From contig CAZSWP010000013.1 in NCBI GenBank assembly GCA_964610875.1, positions 1-64,000 of the forward strand: a stretch of DNA of 64,000 nucleotides. Reading direction: 5' to 3'. Made by a program: the position numbers and the translations under genes. This DNA is from an uncultured archaeon (lineage in GTDB: Archaea > Asgardarchaeota > Thorarchaeia > Thorarchaeales > Thorarchaeaceae). The notes under the pieces are model-generated. The model made no database searches and had not been told where the DNA came from. It saw nothing but the letters and a program-made list of their open reading frames with translations. Below are positions 33,722-55,161 of this stretch, in pieces (the first letter of the stretch is position 1; every line of letters begins with the position of its first letter).

Positions 33722-34891
33722 TTAGATACATCGGTGAATTACTTCAGGTCCAGCTTCCTCAAACTCTTTCCGAGATACCCACATTTACCACGCAGCAACG
33801 GAAATCGGTGCCGCTTTTTGGAACGTTTTCAGCGAAGCTAGAATGCTTCCGCCAATCCAGACAGAGTATTGTCTCTCGGGTGGAGCGATGATGCGTACCT
33901 CGATGTTCTCTGGGACTAGTTCGGTGATCTCCTTATGGAGTCGTTCCTTGAGTCCTGGGAACATGGTTGAACCGCCTGATAGTACAATGTTGGCGTACAG
34001 GTCACGTCGCAAGTCTACATCGCAAGCCTTGATCGACTCGACAATGTGTTCATCCAGTGGGATTGAGTCTAGACCTATTGCGCTTGGGTTGAAGAACAGC
34101 TCGGGTGCTTGGAACCTCTCTGCACCAACAGTGATTACTTCACCGTCTGGTAGCATGTAGGGTTTGTCAACACCAGCCTTGTCGGCCACTGTCCTCTCGC
34201 GCTCTGGGTCAAGAGCAACGTAACAGAGTTTCTCTTTTACATCACGGACAATCTCTTTCTCTGCACCGCTCACGAATGAGTAACCTCTCTGTCTGAGAAG
34301 TCTGCGCAGGTACTCGGTGATGTCACGACCAGCAAGGTCGATTCGTTTGATTGCGTGGTTGATTGAGAAACCTTCGTACACAGGTACAATGTGTGTGACA
34401 CCGTCACCAGAGTCGATGACGAGACCTGTGGTTCTTCCGGATGCGTATAGTGATAGCACAGCCTGTGTTGCGACATAGACGGCAGGTATGCCGAAGTTGT
34501 CGAACATGACAGATGCCATGCGTTCACGATTCTCTCTTGGGTTGTATGGTGCTTCAGTGAGAAGCACGGGGTTCTCGCTGGGATCAACTTTCAAGTCGTT
34601 GTAGAAAGTGTAACTCCAGATTTTTTCGATTGCGTCCCAGTCGTCAATTACACCGTGTGTAATTGGGTAGACGAGTCTGAGCACACCACGGAGGTTGATT
34701 GCCTCTTCACCAATGTAGTAATCCCTTGTGTAGTGATCGACGTCCGTCATAATGGACTCGTATCGTGGATATCCAATTAGTGTAGGCCATACACTTCGTG
34801 GCTGATCTTCACCAGCGTAACCGTTCTTACTCAGGCCAGTACCATTGTCAATGACAATTGGTTTACTGCCCATGTAATCTTCCTCAGCCAT
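33722..34891 (-). CDS. Actin (lokiactin-like), two exons 34891-33816 and 33785-33722; 379 aa spliced
   Basis: [62 protein letters not shown]; C-terminus [20 protein letters not shown] resumes in frame after a 30-nt insert. Confidence 0.96.
33786..33815 (-). other. Putative 30-nt BHB intron in actin mRNA
   Basis: Intron AGCGGCACCGAUUUCCGUUGCUGCGUGGUA; bulges AA|A and UA|A, central helix CCAA/GUGG, inner stem GCGGCA/UGCUGC; removal gives TTC CAA AAA ATG TGG. Confidence 0.82.
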
Positions 34892-35395
34892 GGTTTATCG
34901 GTCCTCGTTTTTTTTTTCTCGTTGTGCGCACTTTAGAAGAGTTCAGACTCTTAGTATAAAGCTTCCAAAACTCTGTGCTACGTCATTCGAGAGCTGCTTC
35001 CTTAATAACTATTATCAGGTTGTCAAACACATATTTGATATATATATATTATGTATTTTGGGTGGAAGAGGGCGTTAGAGTGCAGAGTGGGCGGAAAATG
35101 GCGTTTCGGGCAGCTTAGCTGCCTTTCCGTATTATGTGTATACATACTCAGACAATAGCTGGTCAGCTTTGTTATTTTGACTACAAAATATATATATGTC
35201 ATATAGTTCTTAGCAAGCAGCAAGAGGTAATATTTCCCATATGAGTAAAACCCCGTACTGCACAGAAATTCTAGAGATAGTGGTATGATGCAAAATCTGC
35301 CACTTCCAGTCCCTAAACGATAGATAATTCAAGTTGAAAAATGGGTTTTGTACATAGAAATTCATCTTCGGGAAAGAAAAAACAGGTGAAACAGA

Positions 35396-36205
35396 ATGTT
35401 CAGACTAAGTACAGACGACGTGGTACGCAGAGAGATAGAGAGTGTACGAGCCCGACAGGTCATACTGGACCAATTAGAGGGAGGTCCAAAGACAGGGACT
35501 GAACTGCGAGAAGCCATTCGCAAAGATATGACGGGACAGGTCATTGAGAAGAAAGGTAGACGAGTCAAGGATGAGAAGATTGTTGTTTCAGACCCGAAAC
35601 TCTATCACAACACAAGCCATCTTGAGAAGATGGGTATCATAAAGAGTAGGAGGCAGTCAAGAGAACGCGTCTTCGAACTCACACTTCATTCATACCATCC
35701 TGTGAGACGAGCATTACGCGAGTTGGGAGTGGTTGAAGTAGAAACCCCGGTGGCTTTTGTTGTCAACATGAAGATGCCAGACGACCAGAGACCTTTCGCA
35801 CTCTGGTTGAACAAGACAAAGGCTTTCAAGCCACACAGTCTGATGTTCTTCACCGAGGAACGGGGATGGAAAGGCCAGGTACTGAAGGCCTTTGACAGAT
35901 ATGCCACACGGCCATGGGACATTCACTGGCACAGTATACCCTTGGAGATCACTGGTGCCTATGAGGATGCACAACATGGAAACATCCGAGCAGTCTACGA
36001 ATTCATCCAGGACAGGATAGTAGAGTTGATACCTACACACGATGTGGTCATCGACCTCTCAATGGGTACACCCTTGACCTTGCTGGCAATGGCACGTATT
36101 GCTGAAGAGTACTCACTCAGAGCAGTTCACGTAGAGAACTATGAGGTGGACAAAACCCGCATCATACAGTACTATCCTAGAACCAGCGATACCAATGCGT
36201 GGTAA
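35396..36205 (+). CDS. Winged-HTH plus CARF-like domain protein
   Basis: N-terminal wHTH (ILDQLEGGPKTGTEL...LYHNTSHLEKMGII); C-terminal VVIDLSMGTPLTLLAM resembles CARF motif II. Confidence 0.6.
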   Translation: MFRLSTDDVVRREIESVRARQVILDQLEGGPKTGTELREAIRKDMTGQVIEKKGRRVKDEKIVVSDPKLYHNTSHLEKMGIIKSRRQSRERVFELTLHSYHPVRRALRELGVVEVETPVAFVVNMKMPDDQRPFALWLNKTKAFKPHSLMFFTEERGWKGQVLKAFDRYATRPWDIHWHSIPLEITGAYEDAQHGNIRAVYEFIQDRIVELIPTHDVVIDLSMGTPLTLLAMARIAEEYSLRAVHVENYEVDKTRIIQYYPRTSDTNAW

Positions 36206-36217
36206 GAGGAATAGACC

Positions 36218-52363: not shown

Positions 52364-53007
52364 AGGCGCTTCTGCTGCTTATAGCAATGGCACATATGCA
52401 TACATAGCAGAACATAGATCTCCACAAGATTTACTGGAATTAGGAAATTATCTTCGGGCATTGGATGGAGTTGAGCTGGTTGAGATTTATCCAATATTAG
52501 GTAGGAGGGATGGAAAGATGGACTTGAAAAATCTGCATCTCCGTGTGCTTAAGCAGCTCTGGGATAATCCAAGGATGCCTGTAGTGGAAGTTGCTGAAAG
52601 ATCTGGTCTTACAACAAAGCGGGTTCGAAGTCTCATTTCAGAGATGATTGATTCTAGGGTTTTTTTGGGCTTCAATAGATGCGAAATTAAGCGCTGACAC
52701 TGATATCTCATTTCTGCTAAGAATACGATACGATGAATCAAAGACCACGTATGATGAAGTTTCTACATGGATCAGTAATAACTTTCCTCTCTATGTGTGG
52801 GAGACCTACATTCTGGCATCCGAACCTATGATGTTTGTGCTATTCAATGTAGAGTCATTGAATCAGATGAATGACATCTCCAGAAACATCAGACAACAGG
52901 ACTTCATTCATAGTTCGAAGACACTTGTGAGTGCCTATCATTCTCTTTTCAATGGTCTTTCTACAAGATATTTGATTGATTTGATAAAGTCCATTGAATC
53001 AGAATAA
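52364..53007 (+). pseudogene. Degraded Lrp/AsnC-type regulator
   Basis: HTH LKQLWDNPRMPVVEVAERSGLTTKRV; frameshift near the T-run at ~52660; no intact 5' end. Confidence 0.7.
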
Positions 53008-53115
53008 TTTGGGTTTGCTTCTTACGAAAGATTGGAAATTTAATTTTCAATGTACATGTAATGTGCATCGGATTTATGTATAGAATAGGGTTCTATGGAT
53101 ATTGCTGGTGAAAAC

Positions 53116-55161
53116 ATGTTTGAAATCTCCAAGGCTATGAAAATCAAACTACCTAGTGAACTCCCTCCACAACCGAAGTTTGACCCTCAGTATAGGCGTG
53201 CACCTAGTAGAGGGTTCAATCTAAGCAAGGGTGAGACCATAACTGCTCTCAAAAATGCTCTCCGTTATGTTCCTGAGGGACTACATGAAAAGATTGTTCC
53301 TGAGTTTCTGAATGAATTGATGACTCGTGGACGCATCTATGGATACAGGTATAGACCAACTGGTGCAATTCGTGCAAAGCCAGTTGATGAGTACAACGGG
53401 ACTCTTGAAGCAAGAGCAATGCAATTGATGATGGACAACAATGTTAGCTTTGAAATTGCTCTCTATCCGTATGAACTGGTGACTTATGGTGAGTCTGGAC
53501 AGGTCTGCCAGAATTGGATGCAGTTCCAACTGATTAAGAAATACCTCGAGATGATGACAAAGGAACAGACACTCGTTGTCAGTTCAGGACATCCCGTAGG
53601 TCTCTTCCCTTCAAAGAGGAACGCCCCAAGGGTAATATCTACTAACGGTCTCATGGTCGGAATGTTCGATACTCCTGAAGGATTTCATAAAGCATCCGCG
53701 CTAGGTGTCGCTAATTACGGACAGGTATTAGCAGCTCGTTAATACCCCGCAAAGATGACAGCTGGTGGCTGGATGTATATTGGTCCACAAGGGATTGTAC
53801 ATGGAACCTATATTACATTACTAAATGCTGGAAGACTATACCTTGGACTCCCACAGGACAAAGATTTGGCAGGTCATCTGTTTGTCACTTCAGGCCTTGG
53901 AGGGATGAGTGGGGCCCAAGCAAAAGCCATTGAGATAGCCGGCGGTGTTGGAGTCATTGCTGAAGTGGATAAGAGTCGTATCGAAACAAGAAGTCAACAG
54001 GGTTGGTTAGGTAAGAACTCAGATGACTTGGATGAAATATTTGATTGGGTGCAAGAATACAAAGAGAGTAAGACCCCTATTTCAATTGGTTACTATGGGA
54101 ATATTGTTGATTTGTGGGAATATGTTTTGAAGAATAAAGTTGAAGTTGAACTTGCCTCGGATCAGACCTCTTGTCATGATGCGTATGGGGGTGGTTATAC
54201 TCCCCAAGGTTTGTCATTCGAAGAGGGACGAGACCTTCTTTGTGAGGATAGGAATAAATTTACCAGACTCGTTGATGCATCGCTGAAACAGCAATTTGAA
54301 CTCATAAGAAGCATGCATGAACGTGGTACTTTCTTCTGGGATTATGGTAATAGTTTCATGAAAGCAGTATTTGATGCAGGAGTCAAAGAGATAGCAAAGA
54401 ATGGACGTGACACCAGTAATGGGTTCATTTTCCCATCATATGTTGAAGATATCATGGGCCCCATTTGTTTTGATTATGGTTATGGCCCCTTCAGATGGGT
54501 CTGTCTGAGTGGAAAGCATGATGATTTGATAAGTACCGACAAGATTGCTATGTCATGTATCGACCCAAATCGGCGAGGACAAGACCGTGACAATTACATT
54601 TGGATTCGTGATGCTGAAAAGAATGATCTCGTCGTTGGTTCTCAGGCTAGGATTCTTTATGCAGATGCCAGTGGGCGTGTGAAGATTGCTCTCGAGTTCA
54701 ATAAAATGGTTAGAGAAGACAAGATTGGTCCTATTATGTTAGGAAGAGACCATCATGACACCGGTGGTACAGACTCCCCATTCAGAGAAACTGCAAATAT
54801 CTACGATGGAAGCAATGTGATGAGTGATATGGCTCATCAGTGTTGGGCTGGGAACGCAGCTAGAGGAATGTCATTGTGCGTCCTGTCAAATGGTGGCGGT
54901 GTGGGAACTGGTAAAGCTATCAATGGCGGGTTTGGTCTTGTGTTGGATGGGTCTGAACGGGTGGACAACATCATCAAGTCTGCTTTAAACTGGGATGTAA
55001 TGGTTGGAGTATCTCGGAGGGCATGGGCTAGAAACGACCATGCAATAGAAACAGCTATAGAATGGAATAGAGAGATAGGAAACAATGGACAGATTACGGT
55101 TCCTTACCTACCGAAAGAAGGGTTGGTTGAGGACCTTGTAGAAGAAAAGTTCAAGGAGTAG
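53116..55161 (+). CDS. hutU: Urocanate hydratase (long type), two exons 53116-53722 and 53753-55161; 671 aa spliced
   Basis: YPYELVTYG, SGHPVGLF, YGQ|MTAGGWMYIGPQGIVHGT, SDQTSCH, GRDHHD; the two ORFs are in frame and separated by 30 nt. Confidence 0.95.
53723..53752 (+). other. Putative 30-nt BHB intron in hutU mRNA
   Basis: Intron AGGUAUUAGCAGCUCGUUAAUACCCCGCAA; bulges AC|A and AA|A, central helix ACGG/CCGC, inner stem GGUAUUAG/UUAAUACC; removal gives TAC GGA CAG ATG. Confidence 0.85.

Follow-up and report, generated by a model that had tools for sequence, protein, structure and literature searches.

Two interrupted genes and the geometry of their inserts

The window analyzed here is a 64,000-nucleotide (nt) stretch of contig CAZSWP010000013.1 (positions 1 to 64,000, forward strand, assembly GCA_964610875.1) from an uncultured archaeon of the Thorarchaeaceae. 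Within it, two conserved genes, one encoding actin and the other urocanate hydratase (hutU), are each interrupted by a 30-nt insert that we describe as a candidate intron of the bulge-helix-bulge (BHB) type. The actin gene lies on the minus strand. Exon 1 (33816..34891), taken from the open reading frame (ORF) call, starts with the ATG at 34891 and ends on the second A of the first bulge; the insert (33786..33815) consists of an A, a 23-nt hairpin (33792-33814), GTGG (33788-33791), and TA; and exon 2 (33722..33785) supplies an A, a 20-residue tail, and the stop codon. The called ORF, 33785..34891, terminates at a TAA that straddles the 3' cut, and the canonical 20-residue tail continues in the same frame to 33722. 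Exon 1 alone matches the Pfam Actin family with an E value of 8.7e-122 over model positions 5-388 of 410, a match that is truncated because exon 2 is not included. This is the sole actin match in the genome, and the closest actin genes come from metagenome-assembled genomes named Candidatus Thorarchaeota.

The hutU gene lies on the plus strand. Exon 1 (53095..53722) covers positions 1-119 of 127 of Pfam Urocanase_N, exon 2 (53753..55161) contains complete Urocanase and Urocanase_C domains, and both come from ORF calls. Between them, the insert (53723..53752) is made up of an A, a 23-nt hairpin (53724-53746), CCGC (53747-53750), and AA. Left unspliced, the gene reads as two ORFs, 53095..53742, which ends VANYGQVLAAR at an in-frame TAA inside the insert (53740-53742), and 53755..55161, which starts MTAGGWMYIGPQG. 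Removal of the 30 nt yields a single open frame of 680 residues.

In sequence context, the actin insert reads TTC CAA AA / A-GCGGCACCGATTTCCGTTGCTGC-GTGG-TA / A ATG TGG on the minus strand, and the hutU insert reads TAC GGA C / A-GGTATTAGCAGCTCGTTAATACC-CCGC-AA / AG ATG ACA on the plus strand. The four bases that follow each hairpin can pair back to the end of exon 1. In actin, GTGG lies opposite exon bases CCAA (33818-33821), giving CCAA/GUGG, and in hutU, CCGC lies opposite exon bases ACGG (53717-53720), each with three of four pairs formed. The central helix is flanked in both genes by bulges of 3 nt, AA|A and UA|A in actin and AC|A and AA|A in hutU. ViennaRNA folds the actin hairpin with a 6-bp stem and two further inner pairs and the hutU hairpin with 9 bp; the 81-nt stretch around the latter (53695-53775) has a z score of -2.9. 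The initial annotation had claimed that both inserts are exactly 30 nt long, have the same 1 + 23 + 4 + 2 layout with two 3-nt bulges around a partly paired central helix, share no sequence with one another, and contain an in-frame stop whose removal with the insert restores each reading frame. Comparison of the inserts and of their predicted folds bears out each of these points. The boundaries can shift by 1 to 2 nt, and it is the A + 23 + 4 + 2 register that fixes them at 33786-33815 and 53723-53752.

Hairpins of 23 nt closed by a stem of at least 6 bp, together with three of four central pairs, occur at only 5.2e-4 of all genome positions, so two independent frame-restoring inserts with such geometry lie far beyond chance. 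Rfam and ARAGORN scans of the window returned no match. The actin insert is present in the DNA: a Logan contig from run X1, the probable source run, covers 32861-33818 with zero mismatches. Together with homologous inserts in independent assemblies of other genera, this contradicts the possibility, raised in the initial annotation, that the inserts are products of assembly.

Conservation, covariation and further introns across the order

For comparison, we used 87 genomes of the order, among which the genome under study is designated G000. A homologous 30-nt insert is found at the actin site in six of them (G000, G012, G014, G019, G022, and G023), representing six genera, and a homologous insert at the hutU site in eight (G000, G001, G016, G049, G050, G079, G080, and G096), representing five genera. 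The remaining orthologues carry uninterrupted TFQKMWVS and NYGQMTAGGW motifs, and relative to the interrupted genes, the deletion in these intron-less orthologues falls exactly at the predicted junctions. An intron-less DNA variant in run X1 and actin contigs of intron-less relatives in the RNA-library runs X7 and X9 show the same precise deletion. One apparent seventh actin intron, a pattern match in G071 (L126), was rejected as a chance match that sits in an unrelated gene of ≈480 residues.

The structures derived from G000 were tested for covariation on the orthologue alignments, with slid 3' partners and 500 shuffles as controls. For hutU, 95.3% of the alignment cells are paired compared with 33-44% when the partner is slid, and seven pairs have changed on both sides; for actin, 96.2% are paired compared with 27-50%, with six pairs changed on both sides. 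None of the 500 shuffles reaches the score in either case. The alignment of orthologues proposed in the initial annotation as a check thus finds inserts retained at the same sites with their pairing 95-96% preserved. The h' hairpins within the introns covary in both genes, and the central helix has all four pairs in most orthologues compared with three in G000. Covariation also extends across the exon-intron boundary. In three genomes, a synonymous TAC to TAT change in hutU exon 1 is matched by a G to A change in the intron, converting ACGG/CCGU to AUGG/CCAU, and in the actin gene of G022, CCAG/CUGG has become UCAA/UUGA. The position of the intron stop is likewise constant among orthologues, 17 nt into the hutU intron and 25-28 nt into the actin intron, with TAA, TAG, or TGA in use; this constancy may reflect selection against translating unspliced mRNA or mere inheritance.

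The cleavage rule established for the crenarchaeal cbf5 intron places the cut between the second and third bulge base (PMC2738675). Applied in silico, a cut after the second bulge base gives the conserved junction and a full-length open frame in all 14 intron-bearing genes, which extends to the relatives what the initial annotation had proposed for the two genes of the window. The joined actin junction is LKTFQKMWVSRK (TFQK|MWVSR) and the joined hutU junction is NYGQ|MTAGGW. The unspliced frame of most relatives encodes TFQN or NYGH at this point, so that a codon-aligned deletion would put a wrong residue at the junction. In G079 (L130), the hutU intron is 29 nt long because a base is missing from the 3' strand of its stem, which leaves a bulged U and puts this gene out of frame unless it is spliced.

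Between intron-bearing genomes, nonsynonymous divergence (pN) is 0-0.06 in actin and 0.14-0.19 in hutU, against synonymous divergence (pS) of 0.5-1.15, in both exons of each gene. For the short actin exon 2, four of the five comparisons with other carriers of the intron give a pN of 0 at saturated synonymous divergence. This substitution pattern indicates that both exons of both genes are under strong purifying selection.

We also searched for further introns. A structure-plus-ORF scan of the whole genome gave 27,456 matches with no peak at 30 nt, and a dicodon coding score gave no help in sorting them because actin itself scores low. As the scan was too unspecific, we turned to a motif-free census in which tblastn was run each way between 1.19 Mb of the relative G008 (≈37% of its genome) and G000. 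The actin and hutU introns, serving as positive controls, were both recovered. The initial annotation had suggested from two cases in 64 kb that there would be more throughout the genome; with one further G000 case in the 1.19-Mb comparison, this expectation was too generous. The frequency is roughly one per Mb in the family, and the 64-kb window is unusually rich.

The third intron of the genome interrupts a peroxiredoxin gene (G000 C10:8468-8500). It is 33 nt long, contains an in-frame TGA, splits the active-site motif PVCT|TEF, and folds as a BHB with the central helix AUGC/GCAU; no start codon follows it. Among the 87 genomes, it is confined to G000 and is therefore probably a recent gain. 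A fourth gene, encoding EF-1alpha, carries a 30-nt intron with the 1 + 23 + 4 + 2 layout at DFI|KNM in G008 (C2:310668-310729). This intron is shared by G008, G014, G022, and G079, with compensatory changes in its stem, and is absent from G000. No sequence similar to the actin, hutU, or peroxiredoxin introns was found elsewhere in the G000 genome, tRNA genes included. The initial annotation had drawn attention to a conserved Met codon directly after each insert; the observation holds for actin and hutU, but the position is probably a coincidence, as the peroxiredoxin intron lacks a following Met.

Splicing machinery and competing explanations

The G000 genome (3.75 Mb in 124 contigs), which is present in microbial-mat samples of study P1, encodes the enzymes that such introns would require. 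Two EndA paralogues, at C12:30491-31066 and C3:125882-126505 (both minus strand), each have the Pfam domains tRNA_int_endo_N and tRNA_int_endo. The alpha paralogue has its closest resemblance to the Aeropyrum pernix EndA chain 3p1z_B, to which it aligns without gaps across YxxGPGxDHAPF, and the second is nearest to structural or fused beta-type chains such as NEQ261 and PAE0789. Judged by these likenesses, the pair is of the crenarchaeal-like (alpha-beta)2 type, in keeping with the (alpha-beta)2 EndA carrying a broad-specificity loop described for Asgard archaea (PMC5829648). RtcB is also encoded (588 bits). Asgard tRNA genes are described as heavily interrupted in a 2026 preprint that does not treat mRNAs (bioRxiv 10.64898/2026.10.13.758758). 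According to ARAGORN, 20 of 35 tRNA genes in G000 contain introns, the commonest sizes being 30-36 nt (7 of 20). A further insert of ≈32 nt relative to G008 lies at G000 C1:48903-49027, where the translation resembles that of a tRNA gene; it is probably a tRNA intron specific to the lineage.

Taken together, these data make it very probable that the actin and hutU inserts are pre-mRNA BHB introns of the relaxed HBh' type, which we infer to be removed by the splicing endonuclease. The broader proposal of the initial annotation, that this lineage splices several mRNAs with tRNA-type machinery, likewise gains support from the geometry, covariation, junctions, and selection at these genes and from the predicted EndA and RtcB. 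In the mechanism we envisage, the central helix would arise by pairing of the last bases of exon 1 with four bases of the intron and would lie between two 3-nt bulges, beside the intron hairpin. The (alpha-beta)2 EndA, which would also process the many tRNA introns of the lineage, would cut after the second base of each bulge, and RtcB would ligate the exons to give complete actin (TFQK-MWVSR) and complete urocanase (NYGQ-MTAGGW). The excised 30-nt RNA would probably be circular.

Several observations weigh against this interpretation. The outer exon-exon helix h is weak, with three invariant pairs in hutU and about one in actin, and the central helix of G000 contains one mismatch in each gene; the introns would therefore be relaxed rather than canonical substrates, and that this EndA would cleave them is an assumption based on crenarchaeal examples. 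The strict hBHBh' form requires both helices, whereas a strong intron hairpin h' combined with a weak h is the relaxed HBh' form, to which most cbf5 introns belong (PMC2738675). The actin sequences in the RNA-library runs X7 and X9 are all intron-less and belong to relatives, at 85-95% identity; no RNA of this organism was found. The joined forms in these runs carry the exon 2 sequence of relatives, and the intron-less variant also occurs in the DNA run X1, so they do not represent spliced RNA of this organism. Finally, an ATG lies directly behind both introns, so that, judged by sequence alone, the second piece might be translated separately.

This last point leads to the sole rival with any support, namely that actin and hutU are split genes in which the insert ends the first piece, a ribosome restarts at the following ATG, and the two polypeptides assemble. 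The conserved ATG right after both inserts (TAA-ATG in actin, 12 nt on in hutU) would suit such an arrangement, as would the location of the hutU break near the border between Urocanase_N and the Rossmann-like domain, but a separately made actin tail of 20 residues is implausible. Split genes would also leave unexplained the BHB geometry and the compensatory changes, including those that join exon to intron. The conserved Lys and Gln codons appear only after a cut by the BHB rule, whereas the unspliced relatives encode Asn or His followed by a variable tail. In the peroxiredoxin gene of the same genome, moreover, the intron interrupts PVCT|TEF and is not followed by a start codon. We consider split genes improbable.

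Still less probable is that ribosomes cross the inserts, either by programmed bypassing, as in the hop of T4 gene 60, or by stop-codon read-through. The inserts are short, contain stops, and form hairpins, as such a mechanism might lead one to expect, but matching take-off and landing codons are lacking, the stop is not beside the take-off site, and the flanking codons have changed in relatives. Read-through, for its part, would add 10 non-conserved residues to invariant motifs and is impossible for the 29-nt insert in the hutU gene of G079. The least likely explanation, decaying pseudogenes or an assembly artefact, takes its appeal from two formally stop-interrupted genes in a metagenome-assembled genome and fails on the sole actin gene of that genome, on the purifying selection acting on both exons across intron-bearing genera, on the otherwise intact state of all 14 genes, and on the independent recovery of the insert, both in a contig from the source run and in separate assemblies.

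The closest precedent for the proposed pre-mRNA introns is the BHB intron of cbf5 pre-mRNA in Crenarchaeota, known from Aeropyrum, Sulfolobales, and Desulfurococcales (Watanabe 2002, Yoshinari 2006, Yokobori 2009 = PMC2738675). Splicing had been confirmed for no gene beyond cbf5, though other introns were predicted (PMC2738675). A 2025 paper on EndA cites only the cbf5 papers for splicing of coding sequences, and our full-text literature search found no paper on BHB introns in Asgard protein-coding genes. Like the cbf5 intron, the actin and hutU introns are short, lie within the coding sequence, have a relaxed BHB at their borders, and conform to the same cut rule; they too belong to hosts with a heteromeric (alpha-beta)2 EndA and have a patchy distribution shaped by gain and precise loss in closely related organisms. 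Unlike it, they occur in Thorarchaeota, a group of Asgard archaea, where several genes are involved (actin, hutU, and peroxiredoxin, as well as EF-1alpha in relatives), and they have a uniform, minimal layout of ≈30 nt (1 + 23 + 4 + 2). The cbf5 intron is documented by cDNA, whereas those described here are known from DNA. They would extend the cbf5-type pre-mRNA BHB introns to a new phylum and to new genes.

Other relatives are more distant. According to a study of endA knock-down in Haloferax volcanii, a BHB element likewise makes an mRNA a substrate of the splicing endonuclease; that element is located in the untranslated leader (5' untranslated region), whereas the introns considered here lie within the reading frame (PMC7714728). 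The BHB introns of archaeal tRNA and rRNA, among them the multiple non-canonical tRNA introns of Asgard archaea (bioRxiv 10.64898/2026.10.13.758758; PMC5829648), resemble ours in motif, in size (30-36 nt for canonical-position tRNA introns in this genome), and in their presumed dependence on EndA alpha-beta and RtcB, and differ in that ours have a messenger as host and an in-frame stop within the intron. With the central helix built on coding bases, variation on its exon side is confined to synonymous sites. In eukaryotes, the splicing of HAC1 and XBP1 is also protein-catalysed and independent of the spliceosome, uses an RtcB-type or tRNA ligase, and alters the reading frame or the C terminus. 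Its likeness to the actin and hutU introns is one of analogy only, as the endonuclease is IRE1 rather than EndA/TSEN and the recognition element is a pair of stem-loops rather than a BHB.

Genomic context, history and significance

Several features lie downstream of the actin gene. Behind its stop (33650-33721, minus strand) lies the hairpin GAAGGU-A-GAGC[UGCAAG]GCUC-ACCUUC and a T-run, probably a terminator or 3'-end element. Within window positions 25250-33790 (minus strand), the actin 3' end, comprising exon 2, the conserved hairpin, and the T-run, is repeated three more times downstream, with copies that start at 29192, 26534, and 25422. The corresponding hairpin copies lie near 29040-29130, 26400-26470, and 25260-25350, and compensatory differences separate the copies from one another and from relatives. 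In the copy at 26534, which abuts the stop of an ORF at 26533..27444, exon 2 is complete and carries 14 differences, all of them synonymous and richer in GC. Its start falls on the intron site, which we regard as fortuitous since the remaining copies begin 6-22 nt further in. The copies bound three blocks of ≈4.5, 2.6, and 1.0 kb, which relatives lack between actin and its neighbour, and one extra actin 3'-end copy occurs in G008 and G023 as well. The smallest block is formed by a nucleotidyltransferase (Polbeta/NTP_transf_2) and a HepT-like RNase (25538-26363), which together make up an MNT-HEPN toxin-antitoxin module. The arrangement suggests an insertion hot spot with att-like repeats; in the six ORFs tested, Pfam detected no integrase.

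As for the history of the introns, the hutU protein tree follows genera and places intron-bearing beside intron-less genomes in four pairs (G049/G022, G050/G007, G080/G017, and G096/G011); its starred branches force at least five changes in intron state. The inserts are homologous, and their two sequence types track clades. The simplest history is therefore that both introns, which several genera of one Thorarchaeota family have in common, are old and were precisely lost several times. The actin and EF-1alpha introns are alike in their stem and in the loop core GATTTCC, with a local alignment score of 21 for the best pair (against G012) that none of 2000 shuffles matches, a similarity that hints at copying between genes. 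A tentative and, in our estimation, rather unlikely extension of these data is that the mRNA BHB introns of Thorarchaeota are an ancient population, found throughout the family and still dynamic, whose members are copied from gene to gene. It would draw on this similarity, on precise intron loss in at least five hutU lineages, and on the restriction of the peroxiredoxin intron to G000.

If such spreading does occur, it would imply a route of intron gain and loss at the RNA level, by reverse splicing or recombination with cDNA, in the closest archaeal relatives of eukaryotes, and the splicing of essential messages such as those for actin and EF-1alpha might serve as a regulatory step. The introns also matter in practical terms, in that automated annotation miscalls such genes as truncated or split. 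With the same site occupied and empty within genera, and repeated precise losses, they offer a comparative system for intron gain and loss. The actin and hutU introns would also place protein-catalysed mRNA splicing in the lineage closest to eukaryotes, with the single actin gene and a metabolic enzyme of this Asgard archaeon depending on it.

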